Of a stretch of DNA of 44,681 nt, positions 5,133 through 44,681 are shown piece after piece (within the stretch, counting starts at the first letter, position 1; each line of letters opens with the position of its first letter). The position numbers and the translations under genes are program-made. This stretch comes from Candidatus Woesearchaeota archaeon. Its GTDB lineage: Archaea > Nanobdellota > Nanobdellia > SCGC-AAA011-G17 > GW2011-AR17. The notes under the pieces are model-generated. The model saw only the letters and a list, made by a program, of their open reading frames with translations, did no database searches and was not told the origin of the DNA. The stretch covers positions 1 to 44,681 of the forward strand of contig JACRKH010000060.1 in assembly GCA_016235495.1 (NCBI GenBank). The letters are read 5' to 3'.

Positions 5133-5243
5133 ATGAATGACATAGAATTAGCAGAATCCATTGCAAAGACACATAAAAGACTATCAGATTTTGAACAAAA
5201 CATTCAAACGAAAAAATATACTAGAAAAGACTTGGGTTTCTAG
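5133..5243 (+). CDS. Small ORF, possible antitoxin (36 aa)
   Basis: MNDIELAESIAKTHKRLSDFEQNIQTKKYTRKDLGF; TTTATAAA about 22 nt upstream. Confidence 0.45.
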   Translation: MNDIELAESIAKTHKRLSDFEQNIQTKKYTRKDLGF

Positions 5244-5305
5244 AAGTGCCTCATATTTCCCTACTAAAAGAAACACTTATTAAGAACCACACTTCCCTAA
5301 AAACA

Positions 5306-5719
5306 ATGAATATCCTCGCACAGAAAGGAACAGAAAAGACTTGTCCAACAGCAGTATTTCTCAAAGAAGGAAAAGTTCTTTCAGGATTAAGGCATTACAC
5401 TCCTGACAAATGGAAAGCAATCTCTGTCTGGACCTTTCCAGGGGGAAGATGTGATGCAGGAGAAACCATAGAACAAACTTTAAGAAGAGAAGTAGCAGAA
5501 GAAATTAATATCACAGACTTTCAAATCACAAAATATCTAGGAACTTTTCCAGGTGCAAAAGAAGGAGACCTGGTTCCTGCATTTCTCTGTACAACAATGC
5601 AAAGCCCAAAGCTTATGGAGCCGGAAAAATTCTCTGAATGGAAATGGTTTCCCGCAAAAAAACTCCCAGAAAATTTTATCAATCCTCATGTACGCAGCTA
5701 TCTGCTTGAAAAAGTATAA
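5306..5719 (+). CDS. NUDIX hydrolase
   Basis: Nudix box GGRCDAGETIEQTLRREVAEEINI; ATG 5306 preferred over GTG 5246. Confidence 0.88.
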   Translation: MNILAQKGTEKTCPTAVFLKEGKVLSGLRHYTPDKWKAISVWTFPGGRCDAGETIEQTLRREVAEEINITDFQITKYLGTFPGAKEGDLVPAFLCTTMQSPKLMEPEKFSEWKWFPAKKLPENFINPHVRSYLLEKV

Positions 5720-5731
5720 ACCATTCTAAAC

Positions 5732-6250
5732 TTATTTAATTTTTCTAATAATTTCCTTATCTACATAATCCGTAAGATCTTCCCAAGCTTTCTTGCAATT
5801 CTCTCCAAGGGAAAAAGGTTCAATATCAAGCTTACTATGTATGCTATGTCTACAAACCAACTCATCAAGTTCGTCTCGATAGATTGTGCTAGGAGAGAAT
5901 TCAATGATCAAACGTAGAGGATAGGCATTTTTGCATTCCTCGAAAATATCTTCCAGAGCAGTAGAAAGTCTTCTGCCATCTTCTAATCTGCCAGTAGTGG
6001 AAATATAAGAGTGAAAAGGACTTGGCGCATCACTAAAAAAATCATAAAAAAAGAGACTATCCCCATAGCGAGAATCACTATAAAACAGAGCAACAAAACG
6101 AAGACTAGAAGATTCTCCAATTCTCTCTAGCCTTCTCCAAAAAGTCTGAAGCGATGCAGAGCTTTGCTCAAAGGGAGCCATCCCATCAAGAAAAAGAGGA
6201 ACAAAGGAAGTATTCACCACAACAAGAGCATCTTTTCCAAAATAATCCAT
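5732..6250 (-). CDS. Hypothetical protein
   Basis: 172-aa ORF filling the gap; no motif recognised. Confidence 0.6.
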   Translation of the reverse strand: MDYFGKDALVVVNTSFVPLFLDGMAPFEQSSASLQTFWRRLERIGESSSLRFVALFYSDSRYGDSLFFYDFFSDAPSPFHSYISTTGRLEDGRRLSTALEDIFEECKNAYPLRLIIEFSPSTIYRDELDELVCRHSIHSKLDIEPFSLGENCKKAWEDLTDYVDKEIIRKIK

Positions 6251-6292
6251 CGAAAAAGGAATAAACAGAGCATTAATAAGAATTTCTGTACT

Positions 6293-6376
6293 CTAAGCCA
6301 GCTTTACTTTGCAGATATTGCCCTTGCACACCATCTTCGTTTCCTTCTTCTTCACCATTTTCTTTTTCACAGCCAT
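6293..6376 (-). CDS. Small basic peptide (27 aa) with two Cys
   Basis: MAVKKKMVKKKETKMVCKGNICKVKLA; SD GAGGTG 5 nt before ATG; follows VKOR gene. Confidence 0.55.
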   Translation of the reverse strand: MAVKKKMVKKKETKMVCKGNICKVKLA

Positions 6377-6386
6377 ACAAACACCT

Positions 6387-6809
6387 CTACAAAGCAGAAT
6401 GCATTTTTCTATATAAAACTATTGCTAAAATAAAAGTGACTAAAACCAAAACATGTACACTCGTGCACCAGAGGCAAATGGCTTCCAAAACAATTTCCCC
6501 ATAAATGAAATAAATCAGAGAAAGCAAGCCTAAAGAACACCAGACAAAAAAAGGCATTTCATATTTTCTCTTTTTTAGAAGAAAACTAAATCCAATCAAT
6601 CCTAAAAACCAAACGACTCCAAAGAATGCAACAGGCACATGATAAATTTCTGAGTACATGCTGGTGTTCACCGTGGAGCAGGAAATCAAAGCATTCACAT
6701 CACAGAATGCTGGCTCAGGAATATAATGATGCTTCACTAAATACAAAGAAAGAACCAATCCAATAATTCCAATAATCAAAAACAAATACCGAAGAGTTTT
6801 TCTTTGCAT
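6387..6809 (-). CDS. Vitamin K epoxide reductase (VKOR) family membrane protein
   Basis: FCD..SCSTV..S.YS, TM helices, CLWC redox motif. Confidence 0.9.
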   Translation of the reverse strand: MQRKTLRYLFLIIGIIGLVLSLYLVKHHYIPEPAFCDVNALISCSTVNTSMYSEIYHVPVAFFGVVWFLGLIGFSFLLKKRKYEMPFFVWCSLGLLSLIYFIYGEIVLEAICLWCTSVHVLVLVTFILAIVLYRKMHSAL

Positions 6810-6883
6810 AGAGAAAAGAAAATAAAGGCAAATTATAAACTTTTCCTGCTTTCGCAAACTTTATATGCTTCAGAGTAGTATGT

Positions 6884-6999
6884 CGCTGGAGCTGGGATTT
6901 GAACCCAGAAATGCTAGGGAGCATCATGGTTTCCTCAGACCTCTCACCCCTTATGAGAGGCTTTTGAGACCCTGCCATACCAGATTTGGCGACTCCAGC
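6884..6999 (-). tRNA. tRNA with anticodon CAA (nominally Leu) and a 31-nt intron at 37/38 (6932-6962); atypical, Ser-like body
   Basis: Acceptor GCTGGAG/CTCCAGC, T arm CTGGG-TTCAAAT-CCCAG, long variable arm, BHB GGT-CTCA-AAA / TGAG-GAA-ACC. Confidence 0.8.
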
Positions 7000-7083
7000 A
7001 TATTCCCTTCCAAATAAATCCTCTTCAAAAACTTTTCCCAGAAATTTCCAAAGATTTTCAATAAATACTTAAAGACAAAGGAT

Positions 7084-7338
7084 ATGAAAGAAGAGATGAA
7101 GAAAAAAGAATTCCCCATTAAAGGCTGGAAATGGATTTTTTATATCATTGGCTGGCTCGGTGTTCTCAATGTTGCATTCTGGATATACCAGGTAGTTGCC
7201 TATGCACTCTATAACTCAGAAGATAAATTTTTTACCAATCACTTTCACAGAAGAGTATTCAATTGGGGAATTCTCATAACAATAACTATAGCCCTAGCAT
7301 TTCTCATCGCAGCTGCCTTTGCCATTTTTGTAGGCTGA
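7084..7338 (+). CDS. Small membrane protein
   Basis: Two hydrophobic segments, 84 aa. Confidence 0.65.
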   Translation: MKEEMKKKEFPIKGWKWIFYIIGWLGVLNVAFWIYQVVAYALYNSEDKFFTNHFHRRVFNWGILITITIALAFLIAAAFAIFVG

Positions 7339-7377
7339 TACAAAACTCTTAAGAACTCTTTTTCATTTCTTTTTGAC

Positions 7378-8034
7378 ATGAACACAGAAACCCTCCTCAA
7401 AGTGTACAACATTCTCGAGAAAGAAGTAAAGAATTACAAAGTGCCTATTATCACATTAATAGCACAGACAAAAAAAGATCCCTACAGAGTATTGATAGGC
7501 ACAGTACTTTCATTACGAACAAAAGATGAAGTCACAGCAAAGGCATGTGAGAGATTGTTTGCACAAGCAGACACTCCTGAGAAAATGATAAAATTATCAG
7601 AAGCAGAAATTGAAAAACTCATCTACCCCACTGGCTTCTACAAAACCAAAGCAAAGAACATAAAGATTATTTCTCAAAAACTAATTAATGAATATAACTC
7701 TAAAGTTCCAGACGAAATTGATACACTATTGACATTTCCAAATGTAGGAAGGAAGACTGCAAACTTAGTAGTCATTGAGGGTTATGACAAACCAGGAGTT
7801 TGTGTAGATGTACACAACTGGCGAATTTTAAATAGATTAGGCTATCTCAAAGCAAAAAATCCGGAAGAAACAGAATTCGCAATACGAAAAAAACTTCCAC
7901 AAAAGTATTGGAACAAACTCAATTACATCCTCGTCGCATTTGGCCAGAATACCTGTGTTCCAGTATCACCCCTTTGTTCAAAATGTCCTGTCTACAAATA
8001 CTGTGAAAGAAAAGGCGTGAAAACGCAGAGATAG
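7378..8034 (+). CDS. nth: Endonuclease III
   Basis: HhH LLTFPNVGRKTAN, VDVH, Fe-S motif C-x6-C-x2-C-x5-C. Confidence 0.93.
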   Translation: MNTETLLKVYNILEKEVKNYKVPIITLIAQTKKDPYRVLIGTVLSLRTKDEVTAKACERLFAQADTPEKMIKLSEAEIEKLIYPTGFYKTKAKNIKIISQKLINEYNSKVPDEIDTLLTFPNVGRKTANLVVIEGYDKPGVCVDVHNWRILNRLGYLKAKNPEETEFAIRKKLPQKYWNKLNYILVAFGQNTCVPVSPLCSKCPVYKYCERKGVKTQR

Positions 8035-8253
8035 CTAAAAATAAAGTTTCTTCTTTCTCTGCACAGCATGCTCCAAAGCAGGTCGCATTTTTCTCCCTGT
8101 CCTCCAGAGCCAGCCTTTCTCATACGTATTGCATGCAGGAAGCACTTCTCTGCTCACATGATACGCAACATCTTGTCCTAACACTCGTGGCACAGAAAGA
8201 ATACCAGAGAATAATCCATCTTTTCCTCCATGAGCACCATCCAAACATTTCAC
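8035..8253 (-). CDS. Hypothetical protein, possibly a continuation of 8250-8579
   Basis: 72-aa ORF whose GTG overlaps the upstream TGA. Confidence 0.3.
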   Translation of the reverse strand: MKCLDGAHGGKDGLFSGILSVPRVLGQDVAYHVSREVLPACNTYEKGWLWRTGRKMRPALEHAVQRKKKLYF

Positions 8254-36443: not shown

Positions 36444-36944
36444 TCAGATGCAATTTTTATACATTAATTCTAAAATTCTAAGGATTTTATCATTGTCTTT
36501 ATAAGCTATACAGTATTTTTCGTATAATTTTTTTAAAACCCTTTTTCCTTGTTCCTTTCCTTCAGAATTAAGAATAAACTGGGCGGCTATAGGATGAAAT
36601 AATGAAAGACCATCCGCATATCTAAATATTTTTCCTTCTGGGGTTAAAGGTTTACCAGAAGATCCATGATTCACTATACAATCTTTTTCAATGGCGCCAA
36701 GTTTGTATTTCTTTTCCAAAATCTCTAAGCTGAGTTGGGCATGGTTTTCTTCGTGAATGACTTTTCCAACATCATGAATATAGACTAAGGGCTCCAATTT
36801 TCCAATCTCTATGTTCTCCTCAATTGAGAGTGTCTCTAATAGAGCAAGGACACACCTAGAATGAATAAAATTCCAATCATAATCTTGCTTAGGCAAGATT
36901 TTGAATTTTTCTTTTGCAAATTCTTCTGCTTCTTTTATATTCAT
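36444..36944 (-). CDS. HD-domain phosphohydrolase (cluster B)
   Basis: HSRCV, IHDVGK, HAQLS, NHG, ADGLS. Confidence 0.85.
   Translation of the reverse strand: MNIKEAEEFAKEKFKILPKQDYDWNFIHSRCVLALLETLSIEENIEIGKLEPLVYIHDVGKVIHEENHAQLSLEILEKKYKLGAIEKDCIVNHGSSGKPLTPEGKIFRYADGLSLFHPIAAQFILNSEGKEQGKRVLKKLYEKYCIAYKDNDKILRILELMYKNCI
36540..36564. repeat. 25-bp direct repeat, copy 1
   Basis: CCTTTTTCCTTGTTCCTTTCCTTCA, identical to 40997-41021. Confidence 0.85.
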
Positions 36945-37750
36945 GTTGTTATCGGTCGTGTTTGGAGTATATAAATTTCATTTTTGACAATTCCCCATTC
37001 TATATCCTGAGGAACTCCAAAGAATCTTTCTATTTGAATTCCTTGTTGCATAAGCTCAAATATTTGGTATTTTTGAAGAACAGGTTCTGTATTCATAACG
37101 ACTCTTTCTTCAAGTTTACTTCCCCTAAGAAATAATCCTTTTTCTTGGTTTCCCCTTGTGTAATTATATCTTTTTTTTCCTTTGGCAGCTTCAATATGAT
37201 CTGGATTGACAATACCAGAAACGATATATTCCCCAGTACCAAATATTGCTTCAATAATGATTTCGCCTTTCTCCTGTGAGACAGGATTTTTTGTGAACAT
37301 TATTCCTGAGACATCACAGGGAAGCATCTCTTGAATGAGTATTGCAATATCCGCAACTGCATGTTGACCAGCATAATCCGCATATCTTTGTACTTTAGCC
37401 TTCTCTGGTGAAGAAATAACTTCCATACACGCATCTGCAAGCTCAGTATAAGATACTCCACATTTCGTGAGGAATTGTCCTGCAAAAGAATAGTTTCTAG
37501 AATCTTCACAAGTTGTTGAAGATCGTACAGAAAACGCTACGGCCTTTATGTCTTCTACTGCACTTTCAAGTTTTTCCTGTAAAATTTCTTTGTCGATTGT
37601 TTTTTTTATATATTGCGCTGCTTTGACAGGGATAATTATTCCCTTTGGAATAAGGAACTGAGGATAAAGCTGAAGAAGATTATAGGCTTTATTTCCTATT
37701 TCTTCCTTGCTTAATTCTTTTGCCTTTTGATAGCTTACCATTAATTCCAT
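36941..37750 (-). CDS. Stand-alone PEP/pyruvate-binding (PPDK_N, ATP-grasp) domain
   Basis: GNKAYNL, VRSS..ED..SFAGQF, QEM..SGIMFT, GEYIVSG..PD, DIEW, LQTRPIT. Confidence 0.92.
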   Translation of the reverse strand: MELMVSYQKAKELSKEEIGNKAYNLLQLYPQFLIPKGIIIPVKAAQYIKKTIDKEILQEKLESAVEDIKAVAFSVRSSTTCEDSRNYSFAGQFLTKCGVSYTELADACMEVISSPEKAKVQRYADYAGQHAVADIAILIQEMLPCDVSGIMFTKNPVSQEKGEIIIEAIFGTGEYIVSGIVNPDHIEAAKGKKRYNYTRGNQEKGLFLRGSKLEERVVMNTEPVLQKYQIFELMQQGIQIERFFGVPQDIEWGIVKNEIYILQTRPITT

Positions 37751-38676
37751 TATTCTATCTTATAGACTCTCCCAGCATCTGCATCAAGGTAAACTTTGTC
37801 ACCTGTACGAAGGCGTTTTGTCGCATTATTTGTTCCAACTATACAAGGAACTCCAATCTCCCGAGAAACAATTGCTGCATGGCAAAGGGTTCCTCCTTGA
37901 TCAGTTATAATTCCTTTTGAAGAAATCATATTAGGAGTCATATCAGGATCAGTTCTTGGTGCTACTAAAATCTCACCATCTTGAAAATCTGCAGTATATC
38001 CTTGGATAACTCTGCACAGACCTTCGACCTCTCCTAAAGATGCCTTTAAACCCTTAACTGCTAGAGTTAAATGATGATTATTCCGTTTTCGAAGTGAAAT
38101 AAAATTTTTCATATAACTAATCTCCATGACCTCAGTTAATTCTTGAGTAGAGTATTTCATAAGACCGGCAATAGGATCTGCAACAAGGATCTTACCTTCA
38201 TTTTCTCCATAAATAACGACATGATGAGTACAATCATCTGTAGGATATTTTATTTCAAGAATAGGAATTCTTCCTTCATTTAGCTCTTCAAGAAGTTTTT
38301 GAACAGTAAATTCTTTTCTCACATATTGAAAATGAGAGTTAGGTTCAAGTGATTTAATAATAGGCAGAAATTCCTTCATATATCTGCTCCATTTTGTTCT
38401 GGACATGAATTCTGGTTGCCCTATCCTAGGGATTTGCAACTTTACTTCAAGACCAAGACGCAGAGAATGCCGTGCAAGTTTTGGATAGCTTCCATACTCC
38501 CCATCACCGCCTTTCCAAAACCTAATTTTATCATGAAGGTACATTTCTTCTTCTTCTCCAAGAGGGAAAGTCTCTGGGAAGAAGTGGTGTAATACCATTA
38601 GGTATGATGATGCGACACATGTATAAGGTGTGCTTTGTATATACGTTTCAATATTTTCCATGTTTTTATCCTCCAA
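37750..38676 (-). CDS. C39-like cysteine peptidase fused to a PEP-utiliser mobile (phospho-His) domain
   Basis: QSTPYTC, HHVVIYG, VADP triad; C-terminal TDQGGTLCHAAIVSREIGVPCIVG. Confidence 0.88.
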   Translation of the reverse strand: MEDKNMENIETYIQSTPYTCVASSYLMVLHHFFPETFPLGEEEEMYLHDKIRFWKGGDGEYGSYPKLARHSLRLGLEVKLQIPRIGQPEFMSRTKWSRYMKEFLPIIKSLEPNSHFQYVRKEFTVQKLLEELNEGRIPILEIKYPTDDCTHHVVIYGENEGKILVADPIAGLMKYSTQELTEVMEISYMKNFISLRKRNNHHLTLAVKGLKASLGEVEGLCRVIQGYTADFQDGEILVAPRTDPDMTPNMISSKGIITDQGGTLCHAAIVSREIGVPCIVGTNNATKRLRTGDKVYLDADAGRVYKIE

Positions 38677-39571
38677 TTAATCTAAAAAATTCTTTTTGAT
38701 TTATCTCCAAGCAAAAATGATATACCTTAAGTTCTGGTATACTCTCTTTATATGTTTGAAAAACCAATTCTCTAAAAAGATAATCTACTATTCCTCCTTC
38801 AATGCTATAGCGTTTTCTCGGTTCTTCAAATCCTGCCCAATGAGACAAGCGCAGAAACCTATGAAGTAAAGTTCTTGTTTCTAAATCTGCTTTTTTAGAG
38901 CATAACCTTTCTATTTCTGTAGAAAATTTTTTTCTCGTGTCTTCTCTATTCTTTCTTATCCGTTCCAAGAGTGCTTCTTGTTTTGGATTGTAGAGCCTTT
39001 TTTGTTCCTGTTCAGCCATTGTAAAATCCCCATAGCTATATCTCTCTGCAAATTCCTCTACAGTTCTTTCTTTGGCTTCTGTTATAAGAAATAGCTCAAA
39101 TGAATCAATAGGGGGTATAATTTCCCTTCCTGTTAAATCCTCTAAGTTTGTTCCTAATTTTTGTAAGATTTGGGGAAGATTATTAGAAACATAAACTCTA
39201 ATTCCTCTATCATTATCCAAAAACCTTTTTGCTGTCTCTCCTATTCTGCTCTTTTCTTCAACAATCTCTGTTATGTCCTCTGCAGTATCGTAGGCAAATT
39301 TATCATGTGCATACCAGCTTGCAAAATAGATATTAATCCCTAGATCCAAACTCAGCTGTGATGTTAATTGTTCCTGGATTCTGGATTCAGAATCTTCTAA
39401 GGTACCATGCTGTTCCGCATAAAGAATTTCTTGCCGTATTTGGGCATAGCCTTTACCCACTCTTCTCACTAGTCCATTAATAACCGAAAATCGCTTCTTT
39501 TGGTCTAATGAGCTTCGCCAAGCATGATAGTGCTCTTCTTCTTTTAATGGAGTGAATTGTAATTCTTTCAT
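38666..39571 (-). CDS. Hypothetical helical protein, probable substrate-binding subunit of a split dikinase
   Basis: EEFAERYSY, E.RK, LFREL..VYHF.LE recall the middle domain of rifampicin-phosphotransferase-like enzymes (by eye). Confidence 0.6.
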   Translation of the reverse strand: MKELQFTPLKEEEHYHAWRSSLDQKKRFSVINGLVRRVGKGYAQIRQEILYAEQHGTLEDSESRIQEQLTSQLSLDLGINIYFASWYAHDKFAYDTAEDITEIVEEKSRIGETAKRFLDNDRGIRVYVSNNLPQILQKLGTNLEDLTGREIIPPIDSFELFLITEAKERTVEEFAERYSYGDFTMAEQEQKRLYNPKQEALLERIRKNREDTRKKFSTEIERLCSKKADLETRTLLHRFLRLSHWAGFEEPRKRYSIEGGIVDYLFRELVFQTYKESIPELKVYHFCLEINQKEFFRLIGG

Positions 39572-39582
39572 GTTTCATGTTA

Positions 39583-39602
39583 GGAGGGGATTTCTCCCCT
39601 CC
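39583..39602 (-). terminator. GC-rich stem-loop after the precursor (attenuator or mRNA stabiliser)
   Basis: GGAGGGGA-GAAA-TCCCCTCC, perfect 8-bp stem, GNRA loop. Confidence 0.7.
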
Positions 39603-39608
39603 CAAATC

Positions 39609-39686
39609 TTAATTTTCTTCCTCGTCAAGGCTTCCACTAATCCCGCCACAAGCAAGGCAGGAAAACTGCCATAATACTTTTTCCAT
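39609..39686 (-). CDS. Candidate RiPP precursor B (25 aa)
   Basis: MEKVLWQFSCLACGGISGSLDEEEN; SD GGAGGT about 7 nt upstream; 3 nt after the rSAM stop; followed by a hairpin. Confidence 0.75.
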   Translation of the reverse strand: MEKVLWQFSCLACGGISGSLDEEEN

Positions 39687-39689
39687 TTT

Positions 39690-40748
39690 CTAGACCTCCT
39701 TCACCATTTTTTCAACAAAAAAAGAACAAATAGGATTCTCTGCAAACAATTTCTTTTCTTTCCAATATCCATATGCACAGCAACCGCCACAAAGCTTGAG
39801 ATAGGTACAATGAGCACATCTGCCACCCATATTCCTTTTCCTCATTTGAACAAATTCTGGGCAGCTATCCCATACATCTTTGATATCTCTATTTCCCAAG
39901 TCTGCTATCTCTAAGTTATTAAGCATTGGACAGAAAGAAACATTTCCTTTATTGTTAATGTACATATAACTAATTCCCACACTACAGCCTGAATAAACAT
40001 CTAATGACCCATATCTTCTTTCTATTTCTGCAACTAATTCTGTATTTGCAACAAGAGCTAGAGGATCACCAGAAAAATAAGGCATATCATATTTTTTGCT
40101 TAATGTAGGAAGTTTTTTTAATATTTCTGCATAAGACTCTTTATCCAGAGAGAGTTCATCATAATTATTCTCAGCATTTGCAACATAAATACAACCTCTG
40201 AGACCGAGTTCTACAGCTCCTTTTTCTTTTCCGAATTTAAAGAATCTTTCTATTTGATCCTGATTTCTCTTATTAATTGTCATTCGAAGAACAAAATCAA
40301 TATTATTCCTTTTTGCAATATCAATAGCTCTAAGTACCAGTTCAAAAGAGCGATTATTCTGCCTTAACCAATTATGTGTTTCTGCATTTACCCCATCCAA
40401 GGAAAATTGAATTCGTGTCATACCAGATGCTTTAAGCTTTTTTGCATAGCCCTCCGTAAATAGAGAGCCATTACTTACAACTATAATCTTCACATCTTTA
40501 TCTTGTGATTTTATGAATGCAAGAATTGCAGGAAGATCTTTATGTAACAATGGCTCACCTCCACCAATCTCTAACCATTTAAGATCACTCTTCCAATGCA
40601 AAAATATATTTTTTAAGATTTTCTTGGTTTTAGATAATTCGAGCATATCTTCTGAGAAACGTCCTCTGCAATGAAGGCAAGTAAAGTTACACTTCCCCGT
40701 AATATCAATATGTATTACCCTTGGGACGAATTCATTGTCTTGGAGCAT
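39690..40748 (-). CDS. Radical SAM/SPASM enzyme, PqqE/NirJ-like (cluster B maturase)
   Basis: CNFTCLHC, GGGEPLL, SNG, SLDG, SPASM CSVG..GNVSFCP..CAHC..LCGGCC..PIC. Confidence 0.93.
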   Translation of the reverse strand: MLQDNEFVPRVIHIDITGKCNFTCLHCRGRFSEDMLELSKTKKILKNIFLHWKSDLKWLEIGGGEPLLHKDLPAILAFIKSQDKDVKIIVVSNGSLFTEGYAKKLKASGMTRIQFSLDGVNAETHNWLRQNNRSFELVLRAIDIAKRNNIDFVLRMTINKRNQDQIERFFKFGKEKGAVELGLRGCIYVANAENNYDELSLDKESYAEILKKLPTLSKKYDMPYFSGDPLALVANTELVAEIERRYGSLDVYSGCSVGISYMYINNKGNVSFCPMLNNLEIADLGNRDIKDVWDSCPEFVQMRKRNMGGRCAHCTYLKLCGGCCAYGYWKEKKLFAENPICSFFVEKMVKEV

Positions 40749-40996: not shown

Positions 40997-41021
40997 CCTT
41001 TTTCCTTGTTCCTTTCCTTCA
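40997..41021. repeat. 25-bp direct repeat, copy 2
   Basis: Identical to 36540-36564; intergenic. Confidence 0.85.
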
Positions 41022-41090: not shown

Positions 41091-41603
41091 TTAACGGAGA
41101 GAAAGCAAATACACGCCCAGCTCCTCAAAGAACAGCTTTTCATTTTCTAAACACTTCCAGCTATAATCTTTAAATAATTTTTCAGGCTCTCCAGTAAGGT
41201 CGCTCATCACCAGCAGAATATTCCCTTTCTCTGTTAAATGCTCTTTTGCCAGCACAAGAAATGCAGTGAGTATCTCATCTCCCACAAGACCGCCAGTCGT
41301 TGCCAGCTTCGAGTCTTCAGGCTCATCAATATCTTCCGGCAGGTACGGAGGGTTAAAAATAATCCAGTCAAACTTCCCTGGAACATGAGAAAACAAATCA
41401 CTCTCTAAAGCAGAAACACCTTTCTTCTGCACAAAAGCAACACACTCTGGATTCACATCAACTGCAAGCACGTCTTTCGTATTTTCTAAAGCAGCCAAAG
41501 CCTGAATTCCAGAGCCAGTCCCCATATCCAGCACTTTACCTTGTACTAATTTTCGCACCCACCTCTGAAGAAGCTCTGAATCCTCTCGTGGCTCGTAAAT
41601 CAT
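41091..41603 (-). CDS. HemK2/Mtq2-type methyltransferase
   Basis: YEPREDSELL, LDMGTGSG, FNPPYLP. Confidence 0.92.
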   Translation of the reverse strand: MIYEPREDSELLQRWVRKLVQGKVLDMGTGSGIQALAALENTKDVLAVDVNPECVAFVQKKGVSALESDLFSHVPGKFDWIIFNPPYLPEDIDEPEDSKLATTGGLVGDEILTAFLVLAKEHLTEKGNILLVMSDLTGEPEKLFKDYSWKCLENEKLFFEELGVYLLSLR

Positions 41604-41660: not shown

Positions 41661-41858
41661 ATGAACAAGAAAAAACTTATAAAGATAAAAAGCCTTAGAA
41701 AAAAGATGAAAAGTAAGCTAATAGGGAAAGAATCTCATCTTGACAGACTCATTGGAATTATTCCTAATAATGGAAGAAATTCAGTCAATGAAGTGAGAAA
41801 AATAAGAAAAAAACTTTCCAAAGAGCCTTTTGACATAGAATATATCAATTCCTTGTAA
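41661..41858 (+). CDS. Small antitoxin-like protein
   Basis: 65 aa, LIGII..NSVNEVRKIRKKL; adjacent to a PIN gene. Confidence 0.55.
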   Translation: MNKKKLIKIKSLRKKMKSKLIGKESHLDRLIGIIPNNGRNSVNEVRKIRKKLSKEPFDIEYINSL

Positions 41859-42279
41859 ATTCTTCTGGTTTTATGGCAAAGACACCCTCAGCATCTGCAA
41901 TAAGGAGAAGCTGTTTATCTCTTGTAACAAGGACTGCTCCTATACGTTCTGTAATACAAAGATGGACAAGATCATAATAGCTAATAGAAAAATTATATTT
42001 CACCTCTAATTTTCTTGCCTTATTTTTATCTTCTAAGCTAACCTCTACTCTTTGAAAAGTCTGTAATTCTTCAAGAATGAGAAAATAATCCTTTTTTTCA
42101 AGCTTAATATCTAGTTCTCTTAAAACAATGCCAGAATAAACGATATCATCATAATGAGAACCTTCAACACAATGAAGAAAATCTCTTGCAATTTCCCAGT
42201 AGGGCTTTCCTTTACGAGCATCCCCTTCTTTCTTAAAAAGATTCAGCCAAATGCAGGTATCTACATAGTAAAGAGTCAT
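41845..42279 (-). CDS. PIN-domain (VapC-like) ribonuclease
   Basis: YYVDTCIW, LREL, YYDLVH, LVTRDK. Confidence 0.88.
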   Translation of the reverse strand: MTLYYVDTCIWLNLFKKEGDARKGKPYWEIARDFLHCVEGSHYDDIVYSGIVLRELDIKLEKKDYFLILEELQTFQRVEVSLEDKNKARKLEVKYNFSISYYDLVHLCITERIGAVLVTRDKQLLLIADAEGVFAIKPEEFTRN

Positions 42280-42358
42280 AAGTGGTGAAGAGAAAAAAGC
42301 CTTAATAAAAGTGAACAAAGAAAATCCGAAAATCTTTCAGGTTTTAATATCTAAGAAT

Positions 42359-43767: not shown

Positions 43768-44604
43768 CTACAGCGTATCCCAAGGGCTTTTAATTCTAGA
43801 GATATCCTTTGTACTCACTTTTGTATATATTTCAGTGGTCTTCAAGTCACTATGCCCTAATAGTTTTTGGATATAGCGTATATCAGTTCCTTGCTCCAAA
43901 AGATGTGTTGCAAAAGAATGGCGAAGCATATGAGGGTGAAGCTGAATACCTGCTTGTTTTCCTGCATTCTTAAGAACTGCCTGCACAGGCTTTTTCGTAT
44001 ATTTCCCTTCTCTCCCTTCTAAAACATATTCTGTCTTAAAGCTATACTCACTGTAATATCGCAGCAAATCCCTCTGTAAAGATGCAGACATGAGTGTCAC
44101 ACGATCTTTAGCTCCCTTTCCTTGCCGCACAAAAAGAAGATTTCTGTCAAAATCCAAATCCTTTCTTTTCAGGTCAATGAGCTCAGAAAGCCGAAGACCG
44201 CTGGAATAAAGAAGTTCAATGATAATCTTATGTTTGAGATTCTTTGTTGCAGATAAAAGCTCTTTTATCTTCTCTTGACTGATGACTTTTGGCAGCTGTT
44301 TTATTCTCTTTTTTACAGGAACCTTTTCCGCAAATGCTGTTTGTTGTAATATTTCCATAAAGAAGAATTTGAGTGCTGCATAGAGAAGCCGTGAAGAGTT
44401 GACAGAAATATTTCTGAGTAGGAGATAGGATCTAACACTCTCAGGGTTGAGGCAAAGCGAACTTTTCTCACAGAAGTCTAAGAATTTCCCTGTGTGAAAA
44501 ACATATGCTTTCTTTGTTTGAGGGCTGTATCCCTTTAAATCACACAGATCCTTGAGTTCTTGCAGGTATGCTTCCTTTTTTAGGGTATAATCCAATTGTT
44601 CCAT
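43768..44604 (-). CDS. Tyrosine recombinase (Xer/IntI-related, lacking the IntI insertion)
   Basis: GYSPQT..Y N-terminal domain; SGLRLSE, GKGAKDR, HMLRHSFATHLL, LGH, TTEIY, C-terminal IKSPWD; alternative start 44622. Confidence 0.93.
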   Translation of the reverse strand: MEQLDYTLKKEAYLQELKDLCDLKGYSPQTKKAYVFHTGKFLDFCEKSSLCLNPESVRSYLLLRNISVNSSRLLYAALKFFFMEILQQTAFAEKVPVKKRIKQLPKVISQEKIKELLSATKNLKHKIIIELLYSSGLRLSELIDLKRKDLDFDRNLLFVRQGKGAKDRVTLMSASLQRDLLRYYSEYSFKTEYVLEGREGKYTKKPVQAVLKNAGKQAGIQLHPHMLRHSFATHLLEQGTDIRYIQKLLGHSDLKTTEIYTKVSTKDISRIKSPWDTL

Positions 44605-44681
44605 ACCAGTCTTACCACGCATGGGATTATAAGCCTATAGCCTGTAAAACCGCAAATCTTTCGGAATCAAAGCTCTAAAAC

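Follow-up and report, generated by a model that had tools for sequence, protein, structure and literature searches.

Results

A six-gene operon with dikinase domains, a peptidase and a candidate precursor peptide

The stretch of DNA analysed here, which we call the window, is the 44,681-nucleotide contig JACRKH010000060.1 of a Candidatus Woesearchaeota archaeon (assembly GCA_016235495.1), whose genome (G000) is 867 kb long and 100% complete. Of the sequencing data sets listed as containing this DNA, the single strong one is a groundwater metagenome, which may be its source, and none is an RNA data set. The list of open reading frames (ORFs) and their translations revealed six tightly packed genes on the minus strand, at positions 36444-40748, that form one operon and that we refer to as the cassette. 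Its genes overlap by 1-11 nt or are separated by gaps of 3-37 nt; the overlaps are 11 nt between the genes of a 301-residue helical protein and of a peptidase-swivel fusion protein, 1 nt between the fusion and ATP-grasp genes, and 4 nt between the ATP-grasp and HD genes. An initial annotation of the window had singled out the span 36941..39571 as a dikinase-type phosphotransferase split over three genes, in which proteolysis would be coupled to phosphoryl transfer onto a peptide. The three ORFs are present on the minus strand where it placed them; the span itself proved too narrow, as the unit also takes in the HD, peptide and radical S-adenosylmethionine (rSAM) enzyme genes. The features of the cassette, in the order of transcription, are as follows.

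39690..40748, minus strand: radical-SAM/SPASM enzyme, 352 residues (Radical_SAM and SPASM Pfam matches)
39609..39686, minus strand: candidate precursor peptide, 25 residues, MEKVLWQFSCLACGGISGSLDEEEN (small ORF with homologues in three other cassettes)
39580..39605, minus strand: G/C-rich hairpin with an 11-bp stem, between the peptide gene and the 301-residue protein gene (folding against shuffles)
38666..39571, minus strand: all-helical protein, 301 residues, unnamed family (AlphaFold2 model)
38077..38676, minus strand: C39-type peptidase domain of the fusion protein, residues 1-200 (Pfam, PDB profile, VIA)
37750..38076, minus strand: linker, phospho-His swivel domain and stop codon of the fusion protein (PF00391)
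36941..37750, minus strand: stand-alone ATP-grasp subunit (PPDK_N), 269 residues (PF01326)
36444..36944, minus strand: HD-domain protein, 166 residues, final gene of the operon (PF01966, E 9.2e-7)

A C39-type peptidase fused to a phospho-histidine swivel domain

The gene at 37750-38676 encodes a protein of 308 residues from a TTG start codon, or of 303 residues from an ATG at 38661. Its residues 12-182 matched the DUF3335/Peptidase_C39-like families (Pfam E values of 7e-6 and 1.3e-4) with 26.1 bits against a cut-off of 25 for DUF3335 and 22.2 bits against 22 for C39. The one paper found to name DUF3335, a classification of papain-like peptidases, describes its members as often fused to GNAT domains (PMC10318531). 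Residues 231-302, which the genome scan located at 37771-37986, matched the phosphoenolpyruvate (PEP)-utilizers mobile domain (PF00391, E 2.7e-26) and contain GGTLCHAAIVSRE. The carrier histidine of this swivel domain is H266, within TDQGGTLCHAAIVSRE, and the protein carries the GGxx(S/C)HAA motif of PEP-utilizer swivel domains. In the family alignment, all 11 sequences keep Q14, C20, H151 and D167 of the peptidase domain; H266 is nearly invariant in the alignment and invariant across the 10 fusion proteins. The sequence TDxGGxxCHAAIVxRE is kept in the C-terminal domain of the window protein and of nine metagenomic relatives (41-65% identity, 229-324 residues).

Structural comparison gave the same assignment. 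In the AlphaFold2 model of the fusion (predicted local distance difference test, pLDDT, 94.2; predicted template modelling score, pTM, 0.91), the peptidase domain aligned by VIA with LahT bound to a leader peptide (6mpz_A; Z 16.0, root-mean-square deviation (rmsd) 2.2, 135 of 142 residues), with PCAT1 (8vp3_A, Z 15.6) and with ComA (5xe8_A, Z 14.3), and its profile matched 6mpz (0.0042) and 7n87 (0.0079) in the PDB. It also resembled Ufm1-/ubiquitin-type proteases and the papain-fold amide synthases CcbD and CtaG, at Z 9-10.5. The swivel domain aligned with residues 761-867 of the rifampin phosphotransferase RPH (5hv1_A; Z 18.9, 38% identity) and, more broadly, with RPH and PK swivel domains at Z 18.9-20.2 (VIA); Foldseek matched it to RPH 5fbs (E 5.6e-11), and its profile matched PEP synthase (1.5e-29) and RPH (5.4e-25) in the PDB. 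Pfam, residue conservation and structure matches together confirm the phospho-His domain that the initial annotation had read on the C-terminus of a cysteine peptidase.

The fusion recurs elsewhere. Among the best 120 of 184 matches (E < 0.001) it is found in nine other metagenomic protein clusters: the first ten of these matches, the window's own included, span the peptidase part, and the remaining ones cover 23-51% of the query, that is, the swivel domain alone. It is also present in the cassettes of two further genomes, G142 and G393. Searches of genome and metagenome contigs with the fusion alignment kept 158 loci, all of which match only the C-terminal part of the query; the match starts at residue 153 at the earliest, and most span only residues ~190-308. 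From the equal sizes of the largest contigs alone (4663, 4995, 6064 and 11474), we infer that the fusion-bearing metagenomic contigs may carry the family of the 301-residue protein as well.

In a swivel-domain tree, the 11 fusion swivel domains formed one group (support 95/73, in 94% of bootstrap trees) whose sister (90/77) comprised P0015, P0034, P0053 and P0078, two of which carry Rph_4th. The underlying alignment of 81 rows and 105 columns is short, so we take the grouping as a lead. Separately, a stand-alone C39-like protein of 216 residues is encoded in another genome (G050 L160, G050:C4, 1456-2106). Its catalytic Cys is replaced by Ser (YTSAAS), and its gene lies beside an ORF that by eye, from its translation, resembles TnpB/IS200-605, with no cassette gene linked. 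Its neighbouring genes are unrelated, and we judged it irrelevant.

A stand-alone ATP-grasp subunit dedicated to the cassette

The gene following the fusion encodes a protein whose only domain is an ATP-grasp domain (PF01326, E 1.8e-43; 149.6 bits against a cut-off of 27; profile positions 75-311 of 328). The columns G19/K21, R76-S77, E82-D83, Q140, E167 and D249-W252 are invariant in seven relatives. Partial NCBIfam matches were to PEP synthase, PigC and RPH models; against the RPH model, cassette proteins scored 116 (the ATP-grasp protein) and 77.5 bits, with a cut-off of 999. Orthologues are encoded in the G142 and G393 cassettes (53% and 41% identity), and other relatives are likewise short stand-alone proteins of 203-290 residues.

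The PEP/pyruvate barrel PEP-utilizers_C (PF02896) had no match at E <= 0.1 in any of the six cassette proteins, in line with the earlier statement that the enzyme lacks a pyruvate-binding barrel and is not PEP synthase. The dikinase parts are real and barrel-free, and they are dedicated to the cassette; a long PEP-synthase-like frame of 1308 residues stands apart from them, on contig C62 of the genome (~5210-8116). In that frame the PPDK_N match is broken into two parts (profile 3-118 and 116-326) that lie about 1.5 kb from each other in one reading frame, a pattern that an intein-like insertion would give.

Related cassettes with and without the dikinase

Genomes were searched with a profile of the 301-residue protein family, and the four cassette loci found were read gene by gene. 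Among 401 genomes of the phylum there were four strong matches and two weak ones, the latter in G411 (E 1.7e-4) and G417 (E 7.3e-4), where long ORFs are matched. The family was found in 3 of 401 genomes of the class sample and in 2 of the 240 genomes that make up the window's own order, with none in its genus (0 of 10) or family (0 of 36), and in 1 of 401 genomes of the order of G291. The cassette genomes are G000 (the window's own), G142 of the same order, and G393 and G291 of the same class.

The G142 cassette has the window's six genes, in unchanged order. That of G393 encodes the peptide, the 301-residue family, the fusion (335 residues), the ATP-grasp protein, the rSAM enzyme, a 216-residue unknown ORF and a His_Phos_1 phosphatase. 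The G291 cassette consists of the rSAM enzyme, the 301-residue family, a stand-alone C39-like peptidase of 198 residues that keeps the Q/C/H/D catalytic residues, the peptide, and a convergent HD orthologue; it contains no swivel or ATP-grasp gene. The only PF01326/PF00391 matches of the G291 genome are two long frames (863 and 882 residues) at distances of 21 and 42 kb. The 301-residue protein gene directly precedes the peptidase gene in every one of the four cassettes, the ends overlapping or nearly touching.

Phosphatase-type genes accompany all four cassettes, dikinase or not. HD orthologues lie inside the cassettes of G142 (53% identity) and G291 (46%). With the window's HD protein as the query, no orthologue was found in G393, whose cassette has the His_Phos_1 phosphatase gene (E 1.1e-29) at its far end.

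An rSAM/SPASM enzyme beside a peptide whose conserved part ends in Gly-Gly

The ATG of the peptide gene lies 3 nt after the rSAM stop codon, with GGAGG 8 nt upstream. Homologous small ORFs are present in the G142, G393 and G291 cassettes, the G142 peptide being MEKVLWQFSCVACGGISGNLEEECD. The motif [WY][QE][FL]xC[LV]A[CY]GG[IL] is common to the four peptides, and after it comes a tail of 10-19 residues, highly charged and variable; one Cys, one Ala and the Gly-Gly are the only residues invariant across all four. A peptide had been proposed as the target of the system, and a conserved part ending in Gly-Gly is indeed encoded in every cassette. A six-frame translation of the 867-kb genome contains the motif just once. 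The peptide genes of the window and G142 begin with the same 30 nt, whereas identity between the neighbouring proteins is just 53-73%; of the five non-synonymous differences, four come after the GG and the fifth is L11V.

C39 domains act on peptides of this kind, recognising and cutting a conserved N-terminal stretch that terminates in Gly-Gly. The conserved part of the peptide can be read in two ways: as a leader, with the charged tail as the product, or as a modified core, with the tail as a follower. The invariance of Cys and Ala leads us to favour chemistry on the conserved part.

The rSAM enzyme (Radical_SAM PF04055, E 5.3e-24; SPASM PF13186, E 3.2e-7) has the CxxxCxxC motif CNFTCLHC and a Cys-rich SPASM C-terminus, with no N-terminal extension. 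Orthologues occur in all four cassettes, at 73, 51 and 38% identity to the window's. PDB matches were to MoaA (5e-13), SkfB (8e-10) and anSME (8e-6), and the top NCBIfam matches were to AhbD (164 bits) and NirJ2 (156 bits). We rejected an AhbD/NirJ-type role in heme synthesis because these scores fall far short of the 500-bit cut-offs and because a peptide gene adjoins the enzyme gene. No Pfam or NCBIfam match to an RRE (RiPP recognition element, RiPP standing for ribosomally synthesised and post-translationally modified peptide) or PqqD-like domain was obtained in the cassette proteins; sequence models miss many RREs.

The hairpin 3' of the peptide gene (-20.9 kcal/mol) has a z score of -5.16, with none of 200 shuffles as good. 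At the same position in G142 there is a weaker hairpin (z -1.75, 13 of 200 shuffles as good).

The 301-residue protein, a conserved and probably dikinase-independent partner

The 301-residue protein belongs to no Pfam or NCBIfam family; at E <= 10, its family gave only scattered single-member Pfam matches, in a Pfam copy that, to judge by its scan of P0015 and P0034, lacked PF27448 (Rph_4th). Among 1.84 billion representatives, an exhaustive search with the family profile returned 23 matches, of which 22 (E <= 3.8e-10) are stand-alone proteins of 85-341 residues, several of them fragments; the weakest (E 1.5e-4) is a 713-residue protein matched over short stretches only. All 21 aligned members have H89, N120, D121, E250, R254, D263 and R267, D90 is kept in 20, and E159 and E249 in 19. 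The conserved polar residues sit on five helices of the AlphaFold2 model, which is all-alpha (pLDDT 91.2), and to judge from the alignment the invariant ones look like an active or binding site.

The initial annotation had taken this protein as the third piece of a split dikinase. On that account the ATP-grasp protein, an RPH-like substrate-binding subunit and the swivel domain on the peptidase would form one enzyme, with phosphoryl transfer taking place on the 301-residue protein. A structural search by VIA placed residues 343-717 of RPH (5hv1_A) first among 48,161 chains (Z 7.4, rmsd 5.6, 233 residues aligned), ahead of a runner-up at Z 5.8; the matched range falls inside the rifampin-binding domain of RPH, residues 327-754 (PMC4844700). 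We found this top match striking, as the gene context suggests that very family. With RPH ranked first and the fusion present elsewhere, the outcome that the initial annotation had named as refuting it, an unrelated fold or a fusion limited to the window, did not arise. The active-site-like set of H, D, N, E and R residues, the position of the gene immediately before the peptidase gene in every cassette, and the sister relation of the fusion swivel domains to Rph_4th-bearing proteins speak for the same arrangement, as does an ESM Atlas neighbour cluster in which 21% of members carry Rph_4th (score 0.94).

The match is weakened by several comparisons. A Z of 7.4 at that rmsd is weak and, according to the VIA note, within the chance range for helical models; the rifampin-binding domain includes an alpha/beta subdomain (PMC4844700), and the 301-residue model has none. 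Foldseek returned nothing from the PDB at E <= 0.001, and the only match of the family to PDB sequences was AcrIIA6 (E 0.37). Comparison by hhalign gave probabilities of 0.1-0.5%, both with the N-terminal parts (~480 residues) of 16 swivel-domain proteins and with two Rph_4th-bearing proteins. The ESM Atlas lead was not reproduced with the G291 orthologue, for which the best score was 0.87 and Rph_4th did not appear.

The G291 cassette retains the 301-residue family and all its invariant polar residues without an ATP-grasp or swivel gene. The 301-residue protein is therefore older than the dikinase and independent of it, and its role as the third piece of the enzyme is not supported. We regard the three-subunit dikinase as a rather unlikely account of the locus, which would have to explain how the family persists unchanged where the dikinase is lacking; for the 301-residue protein itself, a peptide-binding or a phosphotransfer partner are the candidate roles.

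Flanking regions and signs of mobility

In the window the cassette is flanked by a HemK-type methyltransferase gene (41091-41603) and by genes for ribosomal proteins L1, L10/P0 and L12 (34314-36142); the flanking genes differ in all four cassette genomes. A perfect 25-nt direct repeat, CCTTTTTCCTTGTTCCTTTCCTTCA, occurs in two copies.

36540..36564, plus strand: direct repeat, copy 1, inside the 3' part of the HD gene (repeat search)
40997..41021, plus strand: direct repeat, copy 2, in the spacer upstream of the rSAM gene (repeat search)

From the start of one copy to the start of the other is 4457 bp, and between them lies the cassette except for the last ~100 bp of the HD gene; with up to 3 mismatches allowed, there are no further copies in the whole genome. 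The pair may have been left by insertion of the cassette, as an att-like or recombination footprint. Because of the patchy distribution, the different flanks and this repeat, the data point to a mobile accessory element.

No integrase is encoded inside the cassette; a tyrosine-recombinase-like ORF lies at 43768-44622. Beside the G393 cassette (L168, G393:C2, 9182-17001), translations inspected by eye revealed an integrase-like ORF, a Fic/RhuM-like ORF and a methylase/helicase gene pair resembling type III restriction-modification, which by eye would suit a mobile or defence-island context. Small gene pairs resembling PIN-domain proteins and antitoxins, again identified by eye, lie near the cassette in the window (41845-42318 and 41661-41858) and in G142 (L167, 137-786). 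A reading of the cassette as a defence system was dropped, PADLOC having returned only generic viperin-like matches for the rSAM enzyme and a 15.6-bit match for the 301-residue protein.

Discussion

We give an even chance to reading the locus as a RiPP-like cassette for peptide maturation in DPANN-type archaea, with a two-component dikinase grafted onto it in one branch. The term DPANN-type follows from the genome size and from the Nanobdellota label of ESM Atlas neighbours; the ribosomal-protein genes are archaeal. The core of the cassette would comprise the precursor peptide, the rSAM/SPASM enzyme, the 301-residue protein, the C39-type peptidase and the HD protein, which in the G291 cassette form a unit with no dikinase gene. 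In the window's branch, the swivel domain would have been fused to the C-terminus of the peptidase and the stand-alone ATP-grasp gene placed directly after it. The G291 core and the single group of fusion swivel domains in the tree suggest that this RPH-type two-component dikinase was grafted once.

Swivelling phospho-His dikinases have pyruvate, starch, rifampin, phenols and prodiginine precursors among their known targets, and in PEP synthase and PPDK the swivel domain shares its polypeptide with the second substrate's binding domain. The RPH swivel domain is seen docked on the rifampin-binding domain (PMC4844700). HpeH combines swivel and RIF-binding-like domains in one protein, with the ATP-grasp part on the separate HpeI, and CreHI and PpsAB are homologous two-component dikinases (PMC12167813). 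The cassette resembles HpeHI, CreHI and the phenylphosphate synthase PpsAB in its separate ATP-grasp subunit, in the swivel domain on a second protein and in the lack of a pyruvate/PEP barrel (PMC12167813). Unlike HpeH, in which the swivel domain is joined to a rifampin-binding-like domain, it carries the swivel domain on a C39 double-glycine peptidase, and its genes stand in a peptide/rSAM context, not in an aromatic-catabolism pathway. It is also akin to RPH, whose swivel domain is structurally the closest and whose model the ATP-grasp protein matches at 116 bits; RPH, however, is one chain of ~865 residues acting on an antibiotic, whereas the cassette has its dikinase parts on separate proteins.

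As the RPH and HpeH swivel domains share a chain with the domain that binds the second substrate, we propose by analogy that the C39 domain is the acceptor-binding domain and holds the place of the substrate-binding domain of RPH, HpeH and PpsA. The ATP-grasp subunit would load His266 from ATP, releasing AMP and Pi as other dikinases do, and the loaded swivel domain would swing back to the C39 domain to which it is tethered. The C39 domain would grip the peptide through its conserved N-terminal part ending in Gly-Gly, and the phosphoryl group would pass to the peptide or to its cleavage product, so that cutting after Gly-Gly and phosphoryl transfer would take place on one polypeptide. The rSAM enzyme would modify the peptide, most probably at the invariant Cys six residues before the cut, with the 301-residue protein as a conserved partner older than the dikinase. 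The chain from ATP through His266 to a peptide in the C39 cleft is thus inferred from the architecture of the known dikinases.

The other parts of the cassette also have close counterparts. The peptidase shares with the C39 domains of LahT, PCAT1 and ComA the fold (Z 14.3-16.0, rmsd 2.2-2.4), the Gln/Cys/His/Asp residues and a Gly-Gly in an adjacent peptide. It differs from the C39 domains of PCAT/AMS proteins in that no ABC transporter is fused to it or present in the cassette, a phospho-His domain being fused instead, and in that Pfam places it nearer DUF3335. The pairing of a short precursor gene with an rSAM/SPASM enzyme and a peptidase recalls sactipeptide/ranthipeptide, mycofactocin and PQQ systems; unlike these rSAM/SPASM systems, the cassette has no recognisable RRE or PqqD and adds a dikinase and a helical protein, and its rSAM enzyme resembles AhbD/NirJ2 at scores below the cut-offs.

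Several observations weigh against a peptide-maturation cassette with a grafted dikinase. Conservation among the four peptides extends to no Ser, Thr, Tyr or His, so that it is not evident which residue would accept the phosphoryl group. In the rSAM enzyme no peptide-recognition domain is recognisable, and the enzyme's top families, although far below the cut-offs, are tetrapyrrole enzymes. None of the four cassettes contains a transporter or immunity gene. The dikinase-less form was seen at one locus, G291, and the presence there of the HD gene speaks against reading the HD protein simply as a phosphatase that reverses the dikinase.

The lack of a conserved side-chain acceptor bears on a second account, in which the dikinase would act on a small molecule or on another protein and the fusion would serve only to co-localise or regulate the two activities, for instance by controlling leader cleavage through phospho-His. 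The characterised RPH-type dikinases that PMC12167813 names all use small molecules, and VadK, a regulatory kinase derived from PPDK, has been described (PMC13400623); the phosphatase-type genes of all four cassettes, with or without the dikinase, would also suit it. This account is at odds with a swivel domain that has no tethered small-molecule-binding domain, and with a fusion and adjacent ATP-grasp gene that, in the three genomes having them, lie only inside the peptide cassette. We give it little credence.

A third account would turn the peptidase into an ATP-driven peptide ligase or cyclase. The C39 domain would cut after Gly-Gly as is done for ubiquitin-like modifiers, the phosphohistidine would make a C-terminal acyl phosphate, and the papain-like Cys, a peptide thiol or an amine would capture it to give a ligated or cyclised product. 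Acyl-phosphate chemistry occurs in ATP-grasp ligases and in the Pup ligase. The Gly-Gly that ends the conserved part before the variable tail, the resemblance of the peptidase model to Ufm1/ubiquitin proteases and to CcbD and CtaG, and the lack of a conserved hydroxyl residue would all fit, and the fusion of a peptidase to a phosphoryl carrier, which needs explaining, would find a reason. However, no known member of the PEP-utilizer family has been reported to phosphorylate a carboxylate, the known acceptors being enolate, hydroxyl and phenol, with an amide nitrogen as another; the nearest structural relatives, at Z 14-16, are hydrolytic leader peptidases; and the dikinase-less G291 cassette would need a different route. 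We consider a ligase or cyclase very unlikely.

The grafted-dikinase reading extends to a bolder form, which we regard as improbable: an ATP-driven peptide-activating machine in which phospho-His chemistry derived from PEP synthase would be aimed at a ribosomal peptide in a papain-like site. In one version, the Gly-Gly C-terminus would become an acyl phosphate, a ubiquitin-like activation without adenylation, for ligation or cyclisation. In the other, the rSAM enzyme would oxidise the invariant Cys of the C-x-A sequence, which we take to resemble the anaerobic sulfatase-maturase motif, to an aldehyde/enol, and the dikinase would phosphorylate the enol to yield a peptide-borne PEP analogue for cross-linking.

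Searches of the full-text literature, which leave most subscription journals uncovered, found no paper linking PEP-utilizer or dikinase domains with RiPPs, precursor peptides or C39 peptidases, and no report of a dikinase aimed at a ribosomal peptide or of a carrier domain fused to a peptidase. As far as that literature goes, the combination of an rSAM/C39 peptide cassette with a two-component dikinase has not been described. The 301-residue family adds to this a confidently modelled helical fold with no assigned family and only 23 representatives in 1.84 billion proteins. If our reading is true, the cassette would extend the chemistry of peptide natural products or cofactors by a new activation step that depends on ATP, and would show a case from nature in which a swivel domain has been tethered to a different acceptor domain. 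For a DPANN-type genome of 867 kb, an accessory cassette of 4.3 kb is a large investment.

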